The notes: generated by a model not told the origin, from the letters alone. Positions 3,905-53,188 are shown, numbered from the stretch's first letter. The stretch is DNA of 64,000 nucleotides from Escherichia coli (GCF_036507355.1 NZ_AP027877.1), one strand, 5' to 3'. Numbers and translations are program-made.

Positions 3905-4716
3905 CCGAATCAGTAGCCCGTTTGCGCGGCGAACAGTTAACCCTGGGATATGGCAAATATACCGTTGCGGAAAATCTGACTGTAGAAATACCTGATGGTC
4001 ACTTCACGGCAATTATCGGGCCAAATGGCTGCGGTAAATCCACGTTACTGCGTACCTTAAGCCGCCTGATGACGCCTGCTCATGGGCATGTCTGGCTGGA
4101 TGGCGAGCACATTCAACATTACGCCAGTAAAGAGGTTGCACGCCGGATTGGTCTGTTGGCGCAGAATGCTACCACGCCGGGAGATATCACCGTACAGGAG
4201 CTGGTGGCGCGTGGACGTTACCCGCATCAACCGCTGTTTACCCGCTGGCGCAAAGAGGATGAAGAAGCGGTAACGAAAGCGATGCAGGCCACGGGAATAA
4301 CTCATCTGGCAGATCAAAGCGTGGATACCCTTTCTGGCGGACAACGCCAGCGAGCGTGGATCGCGATGGTGCTGGCCCAGGAAACGGCGATTATGCTGCT
4401 CGACGAACCCACGACCTGGCTGGATATCAGTCATCAGATTGATCTCCTGGAACTGTTAAGCGAACTGAACCGCGAAAAAGGCTATACCCTGGCGGCGGTG
4501 CTGCACGATCTTAATCAGGCCTGTCGTTACGCCAGCCATTTAATTGCATTGCGGGAAGGGAAAATTGTTGCTCAGGGAGCGCCGAAGGAGATTGTCACTG
4601 CTGAACTGATTGAGCGCATTTATGGTCTGCGCTGCATGATCATTGACGATCCAGTTGCCGGAACGCCGCTCGTGGTGCCGCTCGGACGAACGGCACCTTC
4701 AATCGCAAATAGTTAA
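3901..4716 (+). CDS. fepC: Ferric enterobactin ABC transporter ATPase FepC
   Basis: ATG at 3901 overlaps the fepG stop; 271-aa product with Walker A (GPNGCGKST), signature (LSGGQRQR) and Walker B (LLDEP) motifs. The track ORF from 3760 is an upstream extension. Confidence 0.95.
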   Translation: MTESVARLRGEQLTLGYGKYTVAENLTVEIPDGHFTAIIGPNGCGKSTLLRTLSRLMTPAHGHVWLDGEHIQHYASKEVARRIGLLAQNATTPGDITVQELVARGRYPHQPLFTRWRKEDEEAVTKAMQATGITHLADQSVDTLSGGQRQRAWIAMVLAQETAIMLLDEPTTWLDISHQIDLLELLSELNREKGYTLAAVLHDLNQACRYASHLIALREGKIVAQGAPKEIVTAELIERIYGLRCMIIDDPVAGTPLVVPLGRTAPSIANS

Positions 4717-5846
4717 ACTAAGTGGTCTGCCATCATGGCATCCTTTTTTCTGGATGCCATCGCATGGCGCAACAGCACGCTACCACAAGCCACCATCCCG
4801 CCGATCAGCGCGGAAAGGATCACAATAATCGCCTTACCCGGACCGTCTTTTTTCACTGGCAATGACGGGCTTAACTGATATTTAAACGGCGTAAAATTCA
4901 CATCGTTGATATTTGCTTTTGTTAACTGCTCAACAAGATACTGACGATTACGTAATTCACCGTTCAGTTCCGCAACGTCAGTGACCGCTTTTTCAATTTC
5001 CAGTTTGCGTTCAATACCGTCTGCGCCGAGAGAAATAGAGAAATCGGGGTCATCTTTAACGGCCTGACCATTACTGTAAACGGGCTTTTTAATTCCTGCC
5101 GCGTTGGCAATGTCGAGTGAATAATTGAGGCGCTGAATGTTTGCATCAAGTTGATTTTTCATTTTAATGCGGTCCTGAGCCAGTTTTTCTTTTTCAAACT
5201 GGGTTTTGATCTCCAGTTTATTACGGACGTTTTCTATCGACTCTTTCACCACCAACGCAGAGATATAATCGATATACCCGCTCAAAACGGTCTGCGCCTC
5301 TTCACTGGTTGGCGCGGTAAAACTTAGCGTCCAGGAGGTATACAGTGACGGTTCATCTTTTTTCTTACTGGCATTGTCATCAACCGCTTTCATTTTTTCG
5401 CTCAATGCGACAATTGCGCGATGCAAATCCAGTTCGTCGATTTTCGCCTCTTTTAATTGGTCCATCACATAAGGTGATGAACGCAGGTACTCTTCCAGCA
5501 AGCTAATTGACTGAAATTTCTTGATAAACAGATTAAATACACCGCCACGGTCGATATTAACATCGAGATCAAGAACGCGGAGTTTGGTAAAGGTTTTCTC
5601 CAGGTCCTGCCACTGAATGGCTTCGGCGGGAGTAATAACGGCTGAGCTGGTCCATTTTTGCGGCAGGATGAAAGAGATCAGTAAACCTGCGCAGGCAAAT
5701 GCAAAAACGACCGCCATGACCGTTTTTTTGGCCCGCCATAAAACTTCGATTAGATTAAGTAAATCAATTTCATTATTACTGGGCGACGCCAGAGGATAAT
5801 CGGGAAAATGAGCGTCACTTCCCTGTTTAATATTCAGTGATGACAT
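4713..5846 (-). CDS. fepE: Polysaccharide co-polymerase (Wzz-like) FepE
   Basis: 377-aa ORF with N- and C-terminal hydrophobic segments and a coiled-coil-rich middle, as in FepE/Wzz family proteins; 3' end overlaps the fepC 3' end (convergent). Confidence 0.9.
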   Translation of the reverse strand: MSSLNIKQGSDAHFPDYPLASPSNNEIDLLNLIEVLWRAKKTVMAVVFAFACAGLLISFILPQKWTSSAVITPAEAIQWQDLEKTFTKLRVLDLDVNIDRGGVFNLFIKKFQSISLLEEYLRSSPYVMDQLKEAKIDELDLHRAIVALSEKMKAVDDNASKKKDEPSLYTSWTLSFTAPTSEEAQTVLSGYIDYISALVVKESIENVRNKLEIKTQFEKEKLAQDRIKMKNQLDANIQRLNYSLDIANAAGIKKPVYSNGQAVKDDPDFSISLGADGIERKLEIEKAVTDVAELNGELRNRQYLVEQLTKANINDVNFTPFKYQLSPSLPVKKDGPGKAIIVILSALIGGMVACGSVLLRHAMASRKKDAMMADHLV

Positions 5847-14661: not shown

Positions 14662-15130
14662 TCGCCCGCAGCCATCACTGACTGCGGGCGAAAGTGTAAA
14701 GCAGGTGCCTTACCACTCTGACCTGACAACCGGATATGCGGGGATTGCTCCCCGCACAACGGCTACTTCTTCGGTTCGTAAGCGAGAACAGCCTTAAACT
14801 CAATATTACGTTCCTTTACGGTGAACTCACACAGCGAGTCTCCGACCAGAAGCGTAAATCCCAGCACCGTCAAACACAGCACTATGACTGCCACAAGGGC
14901 ATATTTCGTCAGCATGTTTATATTGCCTCCATGCGAAGAAGGGACTACCATCCGAGTTGTTGAGGCTCGGAGTGGCAGCCCCAGGATTGATAGAAATATC
15001 TCCTGGGGCTTCATCTTTCCAGACCTCAGAGTTAACCTGAAACCGGAAAGCTTCAGGCACCCGCCGTTATCTTACCCTTCCTTAGCAAAATAGCTGTTTA
15101 TTTATACAGTGAATCCTGTTTCGGACTTCT
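14662..15130 (-). other. hokE-like type I toxin-antitoxin locus, copy 1 (repeat unit)
   Basis: About 470-bp unit containing a Hok toxin ORF, upstream mok-like leader and a terminal inverted repeat (cgcccgcag...ctgcgggcg); repeated with 503-bp period at 15165-15632. Confidence 0.8.
14763..14915 (-). CDS. hokE: Hok-family membrane toxin (HokE-like), copy 1
   Basis: 50-aa peptide [50 protein letters not shown], typical Hok/Gef toxin with one transmembrane helix. Confidence 0.85.
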
Positions 15131-15164
15131 GTCGGCAAAACTCATCATTGCTCTTAAAACGAAA

Positions 15165-15632
15165 TCGCCCGCAGCCATCACTGACCGCGGGCGAAAGTGT
15201 AAAGCAGGTGCCTTACCATCCTGACCTGACAACCGGATATGCGGGGATTACTCCCCGCACAACGGCTACTTCTTCGGTTCGTAAGCGAGAACAGCCCTGA
15301 ACTCAATATTACGTTCCTTCACCGTAAACTCACACAGCGAGTCTCCGACCAGAAGCGTAAATCCCAGTACCGTCAAACACAGCACTATGACTGCCACAAG
15401 GGCATATTTCGTCAGCATGTTTATATTGCCTCCATGCGAAGAAGGAACTACCATCCAAATTGTCTGGTTTGGAGTGGCAGCCCCAGGGTTGATAGAAATA
15501 TCTCCTGGGGCTTCATCTTTCCAGACCTCAGAGTAAACCTGAAACCGGAAAGCTTCAGGCACCCGCCGTTATCTTACCTTTGCTTAGCAAAATAGCTGTT
15601 TATTTATACAGTAAGTCCTGTTTCGGACTTCT
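15165..15632 (-). other. hokE-like type I toxin-antitoxin locus, copy 2 (repeat unit)
   Basis: Second unit, roughly 95% identical to copy 1 with scattered substitutions and a 1-nt indel in the leader. Confidence 0.8.
15266..15418 (-). CDS. Hok-family membrane toxin (HokE-like), copy 2
   Basis: 50-aa peptide identical to copy 1 except K41R (…[14 protein letters not shown]). Confidence 0.85.
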
Positions 15633-26097: not shown

Positions 26098-26120
26098 TTA
26101 TTTTCTCCTGGAGTTAAAAA

Positions 26121-27503
26121 TTATTGCTGCCAACCGCCACCAAGTGCGGTATATAAAGAAATTTCGTTGACCTGACGGGCATAATTCAGGTCAAGTAAGG
26201 TTTGTCGGGTTGCAAATAAAGAACGCTCGGCATCCAGCACTTCCAGATAACTTACCGCGCCGTGCTGATATAATGCCCGCGCCCGTTGCAAAGTAATTTG
26301 CAGCGACGCCAGATAACGCTGCTGGGCGCTGATTTGATCGTTCAGGCTTTGACGTAATGCCAGCGCATCTGCCACTTCTTTAAAGGCGTTCTGGATTTTC
26401 TGTTCATAATTCACTACCGACTGCTGCTGGCGAATTTCGGCGATATCCAGATTGGCCTGGTTGCGTCCGGCATTAAAAATGGGGATCTCAATTTTAGGAA
26501 TAAAATTCCACATCCCGCTGCTGGCGTTAAATAATGACGACAGATCGCTGCTGGCGGTTGATATTCCGCTGGTCAGGCTTATAGATGGGAAAAATGCCGC
26601 GCGTGCGGCCCCAATATTGGCATTAGCCGCCATTAACGCGTGTTCAGCTTCCATAATATCCGGGCGCTGCAATAAGATTTGCGACGACAAGCCCGCCGGT
26701 AATTTAACGCTTTGCAGGCTGTCGCTGTTTACTGTCTGCGCTTGCGGCAGCTTGCCGTAGCTTCCCAATAACAGTTGCAATGCATTATTCGCCTGCGCCA
26801 GTTCCCCCTGACGTTTAGCGATGTCACTGCGGGTACTTTCTATCACCCCGCGAGCCTGTTCCAGCGCCAGAACATTGCTGCTACCGGTCAACAGTTGTTT
26901 TTCGACAAACGCATATGACTGCTGATAATTACGCAGCGTTTCTTCGGCTATTTGCAATTGCGCATACGCCAGTTGCTGATTGAAATAGCTTTGCGCGACA
27001 TTAGAAACCAGCAGAATATGCACCGCGCGCTGAGCTTCCTCAGTGGCTAAATAATTTTGTCGCTCGGCTTCGCTCATGTTCTTTAAGCGCCCGAAAAAAT
27101 CGAGGTCAAAGCTGGCGTTAAGGCCAGTAGAAAACTCCCGCGTCGTGGCTGAATCGCCTTTAAGATTGCCGCTCCAGCTGCCGCTGCCCTCGCCATTGAG
27201 CTGTGGGTAGCGGTCGGCATCGGTCAGACGATATTGCGCCCGTGCCTCCTGCACTTTCAGCGTCGCCATGCGCAAATCCCGGTTATTCACCAGCGCCTCG
27301 CTAATCAGCGTCTTCACCTGATTATCAACAAAAAAGGTGCGCCAGCCCGCGTTCTGATAGTTATCTGCTGCGTTAACGAGGCCGTTCTGGCTGAGTGAGA
27401 ACTGCTGCGGTACGGGCATTGCCGGGCGCTGATAATCCGGTGCCAGTGAACAACCGGTTAGCGCAAGGGCCACACAAAATGGCAGAAGTTTACAAGGAGA
27501 CAT
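26121..27503 (-). CDS. cusC: Outer membrane efflux lipoprotein CusC
   Basis: 460-aa ORF with a lipoprotein signal (LALTGCSL), OMF/TolC-like. Confidence 0.95.
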   Translation of the reverse strand: MSPCKLLPFCVALALTGCSLAPDYQRPAMPVPQQFSLSQNGLVNAADNYQNAGWRTFFVDNQVKTLISEALVNNRDLRMATLKVQEARAQYRLTDADRYPQLNGEGSGSWSGNLKGDSATTREFSTGLNASFDLDFFGRLKNMSEAERQNYLATEEAQRAVHILLVSNVAQSYFNQQLAYAQLQIAEETLRNYQQSYAFVEKQLLTGSSNVLALEQARGVIESTRSDIAKRQGELAQANNALQLLLGSYGKLPQAQTVNSDSLQSVKLPAGLSSQILLQRPDIMEAEHALMAANANIGAARAAFFPSISLTSGISTASSDLSSLFNASSGMWNFIPKIEIPIFNAGRNQANLDIAEIRQQQSVVNYEQKIQNAFKEVADALALRQSLNDQISAQQRYLASLQITLQRARALYQHGAVSYLEVLDAERSLFATRQTLLDLNYARQVNEISLYTALGGGWQQ

Positions 27504-36194: not shown

Positions 36195-36956
36195 ATGCAA
36201 TTGAGCAGCAGTGAACCTTGCGTGGTGATCCTGACCGAAAAAGAGGTAGAGGTAAGCGTCAATAACCATGCTACGTTTACCCTTCCGAAAAACTACCTGG
36301 CCGCCTTCGCGTGCAACAATAACGTCATTGAACTCTCAACGTTAAATCACGTATTAATCACCCACATCAACCGTAACATCATCAACGATTATCTGTTGTT
36401 TTTAAATAAGAACTTAACCTGTGTAAAGCCCTGGTCGCGGCTGGCTACCCCGGTTATCGCTTGTCATAGCCGTACACCGGAAGTGTTCCGGCTAGCCGCC
36501 AACCACAGCAAGCAGCAACCTAGCAAACCCTGCGAAGCGGAGTTGACGCGCGCATTGCTTTTTACCGTATTGTCTAACTTTCTTGAGCAATCGCGGTTTA
36601 TTGCCCTACTGATGTATATCTTACGCAGCAGCGTCCGCGACAGCGTCTGCCGCATTATTCAAAGCGATATTCAGCATTACTGGAATCTGCGAATTGTCGC
36701 CAGTTCGCTATGTTTAAGCCCCAGCCTGCTCAAAAAGAAATTAAAAAACGAAAATACCAGCTATAGCCAGATTGTCACAGAGTGTCGTATGCGTTACGCC
36801 GTACAGATGTTATTGATGGATAACAAAAATATCACTCAGGTGGCGCAATTATGTGGCTATAGCAGCACGTCGTACTTTATCTCTGTTTTTAAGGCGTTTT
36901 ACGGCCTGACACCGTTGAATTATCTCGCCAAACAGCGACAAAAAGTGATGTGGTGA
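36195..36956 (+). CDS. envY: AraC-family transcriptional regulator EnvY
   Basis: 253-aa ORF with a C-terminal AraC-type HTH (…ITQVAQLCGYSSTSYFISVFKAFYGLTP…). Confidence 0.9.
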   Translation: MQLSSSEPCVVILTEKEVEVSVNNHATFTLPKNYLAAFACNNNVIELSTLNHVLITHINRNIINDYLLFLNKNLTCVKPWSRLATPVIACHSRTPEVFRLAANHSKQQPSKPCEAELTRALLFTVLSNFLEQSRFIALLMYILRSSVRDSVCRIIQSDIQHYWNLRIVASSLCLSPSLLKKKLKNENTSYSQIVTECRMRYAVQMLLMDNKNITQVAQLCGYSSTSYFISVFKAFYGLTPLNYLAKQRQKVMW

Positions 36957-37001
36957 AGGGCAAAGCGGAAACGGATAAGACGGGCATAAATGAAGAAGAA
37001 A

Positions 37002-37078
37002 TGGCGCGCCCTGCAGGATTCGAACCTGCGGCCCACGACTTAGAAGGTCGTTGCTCTATCCAACTGAGCTAAGGGCGC
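37002..37078 (-). tRNA. argU: tRNA-Arg (anticodon UCU), argU
   Basis: Reverse complement reads GCGCCCTTAGCTCAGTTGGATAGAGCAACGACCTTCTAAGTCGTGGGCCGCAGGTTCGAATCCTGCAGGGCGCGCCA: cloverleaf with TTCGAATCC T-arm, UCU anticodon and CCA end. Confidence 0.93.
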
Positions 37079-37320
37079 GTTGATACCGCAATGCGGTGTA
37101 ATCGCGTGAATTATACGGTCAACCCTTGCTGAGTCAATGGCTTTTGATCTGGTTGCTGAACAAGTGAACGACCGCGTCTGATTTTCTGATTTATTTCGCT
37201 ATAGCGGCAAACAAATGCACACCGCTGCGCATCTGAATCAAGAAAACCCGTATTTTCATGTATCAAAGTACAATTTACCGCCCTAACGGAAAATTGTCCG
37301 CTCCTATGAGACTGGTAACT

Positions 37321-37529
37321 ATGAAACCAACGTCGGTGATCATTATGGATACTCATCCTATCATCAGAATGTCTATTGAAGTTCTGTTGCAAAAAAACAG
37401 TGAATTGCAGATTGTCCTGAAAACGGATGATTACCGCATAACCATCGATTATCTCCGAACCCGTCCTGTTGATTTAATCATTATGGATATAGACTTGCCC
37501 GGAACAGACGGTTTTACCTTCCTGAAAAG
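37321..37529 (+). pseudogene. fimZ: 5' fragment of response-regulator gene fimZ (receiver domain only), truncated by IS1
   Basis: Encodes MKPTSVIIMDTHPIIRMSIEVLLQKNSELQIVLKTDDYRITIDYLRTRPVDLIIMDIDLPGTDGFTFLKR, then runs into the IS1 terminal repeat (…VMTPTY*). Confidence 0.85.
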
Positions 37530-37544
37530 GGTAATGACTCCAAC

Positions 37545-38048
37545 TTATTGATAGTGTTTTATGTTCAGATAATGCCCGATGACTTTGTCATGCAGCTCCA
37601 CCGATTTTGAGAACGACAGCGACTTCCGTCCCAGCCGTGCCAGGTGCTGCCTCAGATTCAGGTTATGCCGCTCAATTCGCTGCGTATATCGCTTGCTGAT
37701 TACGTGCAGCTTTCCCTTCAGGCGGGATTCATACAGCGGCCAGCCATCCGTCATCCATATCACCACGTCAAAGGGTGACAGCAGGCTCATAAGACGCCCC
37801 AGCGTCGCCATCGTGCGTTCACCGAATACGTGCGCAACAACCGTCTTCCGGAGCCTGTCATACGCGTAAAACAGCCAGCGCTGGCGCGATTTAGCCCCGA
37901 CATAGCCCCACTGTTCGTCCATTTCCGCGCAGACGATGACGTCACTGCCCGGCTGTATGCGCGAGGTTACCGACTGCGGCCTGAGTTTTTTAAGTGACGT
38001 AAAATCGTGTTGAGGCCAACGCCCATAATGCGGGCTGTTGCCCGGCAT
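37545..38048 (-). CDS. insB: IS1 InsB (transposase frame; InsAB' is made by -1 frameshift)
   Basis: 167-aa [28 protein letters not shown]… overlapping the insA 3' end in the -1 frame. Confidence 0.95.
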
Positions 38049-38242
38049 CCAACGCCATTCATGGCCATATCAATGATTTTCTGGTGCGTACCGGGTTGAG
38101 AAGCGGTGTAAGTGAACTGCAGTTGCCATGTTTTACGGCAGTGAGAGCAGAGATAGCGCTGATGTCCGGCGGTGCTTTTGCCGTTACGCACCACCCCGTC
38201 AGTAGCTGAACAGGAGGGACAGCTGATAGAAACAGAAGCCAC
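37967..38242 (-). CDS. insA: IS1 InsA
   Basis: 91-aa protein [42 protein letters not shown]…. Confidence 0.95.
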
Positions 38243-38525
38243 TGGAGCACCTCAAAAACACCATCATACACTAAATCAGTAAGTTGGCAGCATCACCAAT
38301 TATCTTAATCCTTTGACAAGGAAATAAGTCAGTTCCAGATTTACAACGCCATCATGGACGAAAAATGAAGCTTTCAATCTCAGCGACCTCAGCGACGGTG
38401 CGCCTAACCTTCGCAAGAGGTCGCTTCACGCGATAAATCTGAAACGAAACCTGACAGCGCGCCCCGCTTCTGACAAAATAGGCGCATCCCCTTCGACCTA
38501 CGTAACAGATGGAATCCTCTCTCTG

Positions 38526-39392
38526 ATGGCAGCAAAGATTATTGACGGTAAAACGATTGCGCAGCAGGTGCGCTCTGAAGTTGCTCAAAAAGTTCAGGCG
38601 CGTATTGCAGCCGGACTGCGGGCACCAGGACTGGCCGTTGTGCTGGTGGGTAGTAACCCTGCATCGCAAATTTATGTCGCAAGCAAACGCAAGGCTTGTG
38701 AAGAAGTCGGGTTCGTCTCCCGCTCTTACGACCTCCCGGAAACCACCAGCGAAGCGGAGCTGCTGGAGCTTATCGATACGCTGAATGCCGATAACACCAT
38801 CGATGGCATTCTGGTTCAACTGCCGTTACCGGCGGGTATTGATAACGTCAAAGTGCTGGAACGTATACACCCGGACAAAGACGTAGACGGTTTCCATCCT
38901 TATAATGTCGGTCGTCTGTGCCAGCGCGCGCCGCGTCTGCGTCCCTGCACCCCGCGCGGTATTGTCACGCTGCTTGAGCGTTACAACATTGATACCTTCG
39001 GCCTCAACGCCGTGGTGATTGGCGCATCGAATATCGTTGGCCGCCCGATGAGCATGGAACTGTTGCTCGCAGGTTGCACCACCACCGTGACTCACCGTTT
39101 CACTAAAAATCTGCGTCACCACGTAGAAAATGCCGATCTGTTGATCGTTGCCGTCGGCAAGCCAGGCTTTATTCCCGGTGACTGGATCAAAGAAGGCGCA
39201 ATTGTGATTGATGTCGGCATCAACCGCCTGGAAAATGGCAAGGTTGTGGGCGACGTCGTGTTTGAAGACGCGGCTAAACGCGCCTCATACATTACGCCTG
39301 TTCCGGGCGGCGTTGGCCCGATGACGGTTGCCACGCTGATTGAAAACACGCTACAGGCGTGCGTTGAATATCATGATCCACAGGGTGAGTAA
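38526..39392 (+). CDS. folD: Bifunctional methylenetetrahydrofolate dehydrogenase/cyclohydrolase FolD
   Basis: 288-aa [26 protein letters not shown]…. Confidence 0.97.
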
Positions 39393-44749: not shown

Positions 44750-45000
44750 ATTTGATTGCCGGATGCGGCGTAAACGCCTTATCCAGCCTACCGATCCGGC
44801 ACCCATTGTAGGCCTGATAAGATGCGTCAAGCGTCGCATCAGGCATTGTGCGCCAATTGCCGGATGCGGCACCAATTGTAGGCCTGATAAGACGCGTCAA
44901 GCGTCGCATCAGGCATTGTGCGCCAATTGCCGGATGCGGCACCAATTGTAGGCCTGATAAGACGCGTCAAGCGTCGCATCAGGCACAAATGTCTAATGCC
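44750..45000. repeat. Cluster of REP palindromes (BIME) in three tandem units of about 70 bp
   Basis: gccggatgcggc…tgtaggcctgataagacgcgtcaagcgtcgcatcaggc repeated three times between convergent purK and ybcF. Confidence 0.85.
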
Positions 45001-53147: not shown

Positions 53148-53161
53148 TAGTAAATTCAGGT

Positions 53162-53188
53162 AAAAAAAGATGCGAAATAAATCGCATC
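53162..53188 (-). terminator. Rho-independent terminator downstream of glxK
   Basis: Hairpin gatgcgaaataaatcgcatc preceded on the plus strand by AAAAAAA (a U-run on the minus-strand transcript). Confidence 0.65.

Follow-up and report, generated by a model that had tools for sequence, protein, structure and literature searches.

A single IS1 copy without target-site duplication joins a truncated fimZ to the folD upstream region in place of the sfm fimbrial operon of Escherichia coli

Classic IS1-promoted deletions were reportedly described in the gal region by Reif and Saedler in 1975, and IS1 insertion hot spots in AT-rich DNA are said to have been found on pBR322 by Zerbib in 1985 and by Gamas in 1987. 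The targets of IS1 are, more generally, expected to be AT-rich. Duplications of 8–9 bp are the normal outcome of IS1 insertion (PMC12428005). For IS copies that lack such duplications the standard causes are adjacent deletion and recombination between two IS copies, and each of the 14 IS150 deletions studied in the LTEE (14/14) began as an insertion, after which came an adjacent deletion (PMC11708052). One-step movement of an IS without duplication has also been proposed, for IS5 and IS481 (PMC11708052). The sfm (Salmonella-like fim) operon is patchy in its distribution; 65% of E. coli strains carry sfmA, the B2 strains analysed are all without it, and all Shigella analysed keep sfmA and lack sfmC and/or sfmH (PMC3604780).

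We analysed a stretch of 64,000 nucleotides of E. coli DNA (GCF_036507355.1, NZ_AP027877.1), referred to below as the window. The original prediction, made from the sequence alone, had drawn attention to positions 37321–38525, proposing that an IS1 without target-site duplication truncates fimZ and takes the place of the sfm operon next to folD. These coordinates proved exact, position 37321 being the first base of the fimZ ATG and 38525 immediately preceding the folD ATG. The end state is directly visible in the window, where one intact IS1 joins the fimZ remnant (fimZ') to the folD upstream region with no duplication. The features of the element itself are as follows.

37530–38297, minus strand (that of the transposase genes): IS1, 768 bp, IS1A-like by comparison with K-12 IS1A.
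37530–37552, plus strand: right inverted repeat (IRR), GGTAATGACTCCAACTTATTGAT, facing fimZ' (pattern search, 0 mismatches).
38275–38297, minus strand: left inverted repeat (IRL), GGTGATGCTGCCAACTTACTGAT, facing folD (pattern search, 0 mismatches).
37967–38242, minus strand: insA, intact, 91 aa (open reading frame; Pfam Zn_ribbon_InsA, 1.3e-21, and HTH_Tnp_IS1, 4.7e-31).
37545–38048, minus strand: insB' frame, intact, 167 aa (open reading frame; Pfam DDE_Tnp_IS1, 2.3e-78).

Length, inverted repeats, the insA/insB' arrangement with its A6C motif and near-identity to the reference all identify the element as a member of the IS1 family. It differs from K-12 IS1A at 2 of 768 nt (99.7% identity; SNPs at window positions 37812 and 37854) and is identical to IS1 copies of strains CP131_Sichuan and EH10-18-47. 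The IS1 end consensus matched just twice in 64 kb, both times with 0 mismatches, against a chance expectation of 0 in the pattern search. The A6C motif (AAAAAAC), at which a −1 frameshift yields the InsAB' transposase, lies at IS1 coordinate 307, and a promoter-like site found by consensus scan at 38290–38263 on the minus strand overlaps IRL, in the position of the insA promoter. Since the insA and insB' frames, the Pfam domains and the A6C motif are all present, the copy is apparently transposition-competent. The one usual attribute that is absent is a direct target-site duplication of 8–9 bp; this absence is no argument against the identity of the element and shows that a rearrangement followed its insertion.

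On the left, the locus begins at argU and runs into the truncated gene.

37002–37078, minus strand: tRNA-Arg(UCU), argU, the left landmark of the locus (ARAGORN; Rfam tRNA; K-12 alignment).
37321–37529, plus strand: fimZ', the 5' 209 nt of a LuxR-type response-regulator gene (70 native residues; K-12 alignment).
37321–37551, plus strand: FimZ'-IS1 read-through open reading frame of 76 aa (ORF list and translation).
37521–37529, no strand: left flanking 9-mer, CCTGAAAAG, unlike the right 9-mer in sequence.

This side is 99.1% identical to K-12 over window positions 37000–37530. As predicted, the fimZ frame leaves native sequence after about 70 codons exactly at the inverted repeat: native fimZ ends at 37529 (nt 209), IRR begins at 37530, and codon 70 is completed by the first G of IS1. 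The frame continues inside IS1 for six codons (VMTPTY) to a stop at 37549–37551. The Pfam Response_reg match of FimZ' covers only profile positions 1–64 of 111 (~60% of the receiver domain), and the GerE/LuxR HTH is gone, whereas both Response_reg and GerE are present in the full-length FimZ of strain TB06052. The window gene therefore does not have the complete receiver and C-terminal GerE/LuxR HTH of a NarL/LuxR-type FimZ, and it is a truncated remnant. On the far side of argU, envY directly adjoins the tRNA gene (window 36956–37320), with no DLP12 prophage and hence no ompT or appY; the same argU-envY arrangement without DLP12 is found in TB06052, GN25 and several further strains.

On the right, the element abuts DNA that belongs upstream of folD.

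38298–38306, no strand: right flanking 9-mer, AATTATCTT, which is duplicated on either side of an IS1 in strain GN25.
38298–38525, plus strand: retained folD upstream DNA, 228 bp, from the end of the sfmA-folD intergenic region nearest to folD (K-12 and TB06052 alignment).
38526–39392, plus strand: folD, intact, 288 aa, without stops and with 99.65% identity to the whole of K-12 FolD.

As had also been proposed, this IS1 end joins the folD upstream region directly, in sequence collinear with K-12 and 228 bp before the folD ATG (38526). No open reading frame crosses the right junction in the window, and a promoter-like site at 38451–38479 (consensus scan) is kept upstream of folD. The two flanking 9-mers, CCTGAAAAG and AATTATCTT, were held to be unlike and are so; we found no direct repeat of 8, 9 or 10 bp between them, shifted or shorter repeats included. 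Within the retained upstream DNA, a 9-bp unit, CTCAGCGAC, is present as a tandem duplicate (window 38370–38387), also in TB06052, and is single in K-12 and HCP6S3_I2.

The gene order in K-12 is folD, sfmA, sfmC, sfmD, sfmH, sfmF, fimZ, argU, so that sfmACDHF lies between folD and fimZ as the original prediction stated. When the window was aligned to K-12 MG1655, positions 557,961–564,271 (6,311 bp) were found to be missing between the two IS1 flanks. The deletion has taken away the promoter region of sfmA, all of sfmACDHF and, from the 3' end of fimZ, 424 nt or two-thirds of the gene. The closest complete genome that we found, TB06052, has flanks 99.0–99.2% identical to those of the window, is likewise without DLP12 and carries no IS1 at the locus; it holds the full interval in one contiguous piece, including sfmF and full-length fimZ, and by alignment to it 6,317 bp are missing from the window. 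Among the genomes returned for the identical FolD protein, sfmA, sfmC and sfmD lie beside folD in 10 of 10. A search for Sfm protein homologues elsewhere in the 64-kb window gave no hit, the sole match being to FimZ residues 1–71. The IS thus occupies the new joint precisely, and relatives hold the missing DNA in one piece, as in an adjacent deletion. The proposal that either an IS1 adjacent deletion or recombination between IS1 copies removed the 3' part of fimZ together with sfmACDHF is supported by this exact interval with IS1 at its joint.

One might instead suppose that this lineage natively has fimZ beside folD and that IS1 simply inserted between them with no deletion at all. The patchiness of sfm gives this some initial appeal, since 1,225 of 5,426 complete genomes lack sfmD and B2 strains lack sfmA (PMC3604780). 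However, the break in fimZ falls inside a domain, at codon 70, the break upstream of folD falls in the midst of intergenic sequence, there is no duplication, and the closest relatives carry the full interval. Because TB06052 and the ten identical-FolD genomes carry sfm beside folD, the two genes are not natively adjacent and the deletion is therefore secondary. The truncation of fimZ and the lack of a duplication in effect refute native adjacency, which we regard as next to impossible. Neither a 9-bp direct repeat nor relatives with native fimZ-folD adjacency came to light, the two findings named beforehand as contrary to a deletion.

The surroundings of the locus are unremarkable. Collinearity with K-12 extends from fepB to allA over a contiguous 64 kb, with no other inserted element and one IS1 copy. 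None of 55 K-12 genes checked contains a stop or frameshift in the window; 52 of them align end to end, entS and purK are one terminal residue short in the alignment, and fepB is cut by the window edge. With this collinearity, undisrupted genes and a single IS1, the organism is an ordinary E. coli, unlike Shigella with its load of IS copies. Over the 24.7 kb to the right of IS1 (window 38298–63000), identity to complete RefSeq E. coli genomes nowhere exceeds 98.9%, so that the lineage is poorly represented among them. The IS1-rich Shigella and E. coli B genomes that had been suggested as context did not prove relevant, given the single IS1, the 55 undisrupted genes and the lack of any match above 98.9%. 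An origin from Shigella or E. coli B was rejected on the undisrupted genes, the single IS1, the lack of other inserts, the absence of sfmA, which all Shigella analysed keep (PMC3604780), and the lack of a complete genome above 98.9% over 24.7 kb, B strains presumably being among those compared.

Several small differences from K-12 were observed elsewhere in the window. The hokE/sokE type I toxin-antitoxin locus is tandemly duplicated (14662–15632; period ~503 bp; 95–96% identity), with two Hok open reading frames and two Rfam sok hits; K-12 has at this place a single copy followed by IS186B, and the window is without IS186. In the cusC-cusF spacer (26119–26122) ~128 bp of K-12 sequence are missing, the stretch between ybcF and purK (44863–44915) holds a short repeated element, and between glxK and allE (53149–53170) ~120 bp of K-12 sequence are replaced by ~20 bp; these three differences are probably REP-type elements. 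FepE (4716–5846) is 94% identical to the K-12 protein, its neighbours being 98–100% identical.

To place the junctions in a wider context, we compared the locus across E. coli. Junction searches covered 5,426 complete genomes, in which many IS1 copies were present at the locus. Besides the window, 20 alleles from complete genomes were inspected, and 17 junction pairs, that of the window included, were mapped onto TB06052. They reveal an IS1 hot spot, a 24-bp stretch of the sfmA-folD intergenic region ~217–240 bp upstream of folD (window 38287–38321; TB06052 L023 13851–13882), with a GC content of 24% within ±25 bp. Five junction positions within it, at offsets of −11, 0, +6, +10 and +12 relative to the right junction of the window, account for seven simple insertions with perfect 9-bp duplications and six deletion derivatives.

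Offset −11, simple insertions with a 9-bp duplication and sfm present: CP131_Sichuan, ET76, MB30 and DX6.
Offset −11, deletions without duplication and with different left ends: LR-33 (into sfmC, 1,262 bp) and PCP07083 (fimZ nt 383, 6,154 bp).
Offset 0, simple insertion: GN25, with duplication of AATTATCTT.
Offset 0, deletion without duplication: the window (fimZ nt 209, 6,317 bp).
Offset +6: no simple insertion seen; deletion in HCP6S3_I2 (to fimZ nt 208).
Offset +10: no simple insertion seen; deletion in E1739 (into sfmH).
Offset +12, simple insertions: 144 and EC23HZZ201.
Offset +12, deletion without duplication: H7 (fimZ nt 38, 6,476 bp).

Different IS1 variants occupy these positions; compared with the copy in the window, that of strain 144 differs at 45 positions and those of ET76 and MB30 at 7, and the presence of different variants at the same site indicates that the insertions were independent. 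All copies in the hot spot share one orientation, with the exception of F829, which has the opposite orientation at offset 0. Deletions that make no use of the intergenic hot spot occur in 504838, PEC408 and EH10-18-47. The allele of F829 (NZ_OY754443.1, 3315165–3323522) is more elaborate: it has two inverted IS1 copies, the first in fimZ near nt 447 and the second at the AATTATCTT site, and between them lie inverted pieces of the fimZ 3' part and of sfmH as well as an IS903B, with an 8–9 bp inverted target duplication, an arrangement compatible with duplicative inversion or with recombination between inverted copies. A literature search returned no account of this fimZ/sfm IS1 deletion allele or of a folD-sfmA IS1 hot spot.

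GN25 is of particular use for interpreting the window. Its IS1 starts at the very base that forms the right junction of the window and has the same orientation, and its sfm and fimZ are intact, so that an ordinary insertion with duplication exists at the same site in another lineage. Because its flanks differ from those of the window (3 mismatches in 120 bp), GN25 counts as an analogue from a different lineage, not as a demonstrated ancestor, and the comparison yielded no precursor from the lineage of the window itself.

These observations bear on whether the junction might be an artefact, through assembly collapse of two IS1 copies that hides sfm between them, or the product of a single step in which a deletion break captured IS1 with no target cleavage of the transposase type. 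The IS1 repeat does break short-read assemblies (all 7 draft contigs that carry the fimZ-side junction end inside IS1), the search for sfm covered the 64-kb window only, and the proposals for IS5 and IS481 (PMC11708052) offer a precedent for one-step capture. Yet the window is contiguous over 64 kb and elsewhere collinear with K-12, the same type of allele occurs in the independent complete genomes HCP6S3_I2, H7 and PCP07083, and the right junction is a canonical, duplication-generating insertion site. We consider both versions highly improbable.

An IS1-mediated deletion by one of three standard routes is, taken together, very probably what the window records. Among the three, insertion on the folD side followed by IS1 adjacent deletion into fimZ is the likeliest history, and we would give it roughly an even chance. 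The ancestral state in this E. coli lineage would have been argU-fimZ-sfmFHDCA-folD. IS1 would have entered the AT-rich sfmA-folD hot spot, duplicating AATTATCTT, with IRL towards folD. By intramolecular replicative transposition of the same IS1, IRR would then have attacked the CCTGAAAAG target in fimZ, ending at nt 209; CCTGAAAAG is accordingly presumed to be the new target hit by the deletion event. The ~6.3 kb in between and the left copy of the AATTATCTT duplication would have been lost. An insertion on the folD side is favoured because simple-insertion 'parents' and nested 'children' without duplication share the folD-side junction, and a nested deletion series anchored on that side, as the alleles suggest, is the pattern that adjacent deletions would be expected to give. 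The AT-richness of both targets, the intergenic site and fimZ, also agrees with what is expected of IS1. Against this history stand the recurrence of the fimZ nt 209 junction and the capacity of fimZ to take simple insertions (B19374, nt 354), as well as the differing flanks of GN25 and the failure to find a precursor in the window's own lineage. Moreover, a single sequence does not disclose which event came first, and recombination between two IS1 copies or a deletion anchored in fimZ would give the same product.

An identical junction between fimZ nt 209 and IRR, with the 76-aa open reading frame, was found in 7 draft contigs of other assemblies and in one metagenome scaffold (carriers include GCA_965181805.1, SRR11484673, ERR3317631, ERR15395390, SRR9990283 and ERR10765996). 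The carriers represent at least three flank haplotypes beyond that of the window (four counting the window), with 42–92 mismatches to the window in 5.2 kb and up to 97 when pairs of carriers are counted. All 7 draft contigs end inside IS1, so that only the fimZ side is visible in them; CCTGAAAAGGATC at the IRL end of their IS1 would mark a simple insertion at fimZ nt 209, and folD upstream DNA there would mark a deletion. Spread of one allele by recombination on a shared flank haplotype was rejected, the carriers sharing none and their differences reaching within ~100 bp of the junction. In HCP6S3_I2 the left junction is 1 bp shorter (nt 208, in a G run) and the right junction 6 bp away. In B19374, the simple IS1 insertion at fimZ nt 354 has a duplication of GCCGTTCAG. 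The GC content of fimZ is 36.8%, compared with 45.8% for the sfm genes. Because the nt 209 junction recurs on several haplotypes and fimZ takes simple insertions, this fimZ site, too, is one that IS1 prefers, and it could have received the first insertion.

Such a beginning would suit an adjacent deletion anchored in fimZ, in which IS1 was first at nt 209 and IRL then moved into the AATTATCTT hot spot, deleting rightwards. The recurrent nt 209 junction agrees with this, intramolecular transposition would favour the intergenic hot spot, and HCP6S3_I2 would fit one anchor with two landings if its 1-bp G-run difference is an assembly error. The documented simple insertions, however, include one at the right junction and none at fimZ nt 209, and for three hot-spot positions it is the right junction, not the left, that deletions of unequal length have in common. 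We think this route unlikely.

The remaining route is RecA-dependent homologous recombination between two direct IS1 copies, at fimZ nt 209 and at the AATTATCTT site, with excision of 6.3 kb. It would leave one IS1 with one half of each duplication pair, a product indistinguishable from the window; the right site has been used independently in GN25 and F829 and the left on at least three further haplotypes, and F829 has two IS1 copies at the locus (in fimZ and at AATTATCTT), though inverted. But three events are needed here as against two, a direct IS1 pair bracketing sfm was present in 0 of the 20 complete-genome alleles inspected, and a near-match to the left junction as a single piece occurs in 1 of 5,426 complete genomes (HCP6S3_I2). 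No mosaic of IS1 variants was detected in the window IS1, which is 1–3 SNPs from common IS1A; identical parents would leave none. Such recombination is conceivable, and we hold it to be rather doubtful as the origin of the window allele.

A broader reading of the comparison would be that the oriented 24-bp hot spot seeds, as a recurrent process, nested deletions that erase Sfm and FimZ in unrelated lineages, with endpoints concentrated in fimZ. We put this forward only as a speculation of low probability. If true, it may reflect convergent selection for loss of the Sfm fimbria or of the FimZ regulator, or a nucleoprotein architecture that steers the intramolecular target choice of IS1, for example bridging of the AT-rich sfmA promoter and fimZ by H-NS or IHF, beyond what AT-richness and deep sampling would give.

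Returning to the deletion in the window, the strain is expected, judging from its gene content, to have lost the Sfm chaperone-usher fimbria and the FimZ regulator, the latter because only a truncated receiver fragment without the DNA-binding domain is left. The allele would thereby explain a gene-content difference of this genome, which would have neither. The folD gene is undamaged and still has 228 bp of DNA upstream of it, and the analysis flags an apparently active IS1 beside this essential gene. The locus provides a clean natural example of an IS copy whose missing target-site duplication marks a deletion, and the comparison across strains identifies the sfmA-folD intergenic region as a recurrent IS1 entry point that adds to the patchy distribution of sfm in E. 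coli. The scar is a textbook IS-mediated deletion of a known class and not a new kind of feature, and it does not alter how IS1 or the loss of fimbrial genes is understood at present. At the population level it is mildly notable for the hot spot with one orientation and for identical deletion endpoints in unrelated strains.

In comparison with known systems, the element resembles K-12 IS1A in its 768 bp, inverted repeats, insA/insB' and A6C motif, and differs from it by two SNPs and by having no flanking 8–9 bp duplication, owing to the later rearrangement. The repeated independent insertions within a 24-bp stretch of 24% GC are like the IS1 hot spots of pBR322, but the folD-side hot spot is chromosomal and nearly all of its copies have one orientation. 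With respect to the patchy sfm operon (PMC3604780), the window adds another lineage without a functional Sfm at the folD-argU position; it differs from the B2 and Shigella patterns in that the 5' stump of fimZ stays, sfmA is gone and an IS1 marks a recent secondary deletion. The closest parallels are the IS-mediated adjacent deletions of IS1 in gal and of IS150 in the LTEE. Unlike those, the deletion described here comes from a natural isolate and is known from its end state alone. As in those systems, an intact IS stands at the joint with no duplication and one junction is a normal insertion site, which at this locus is shared across strains by nested deletions of different lengths.
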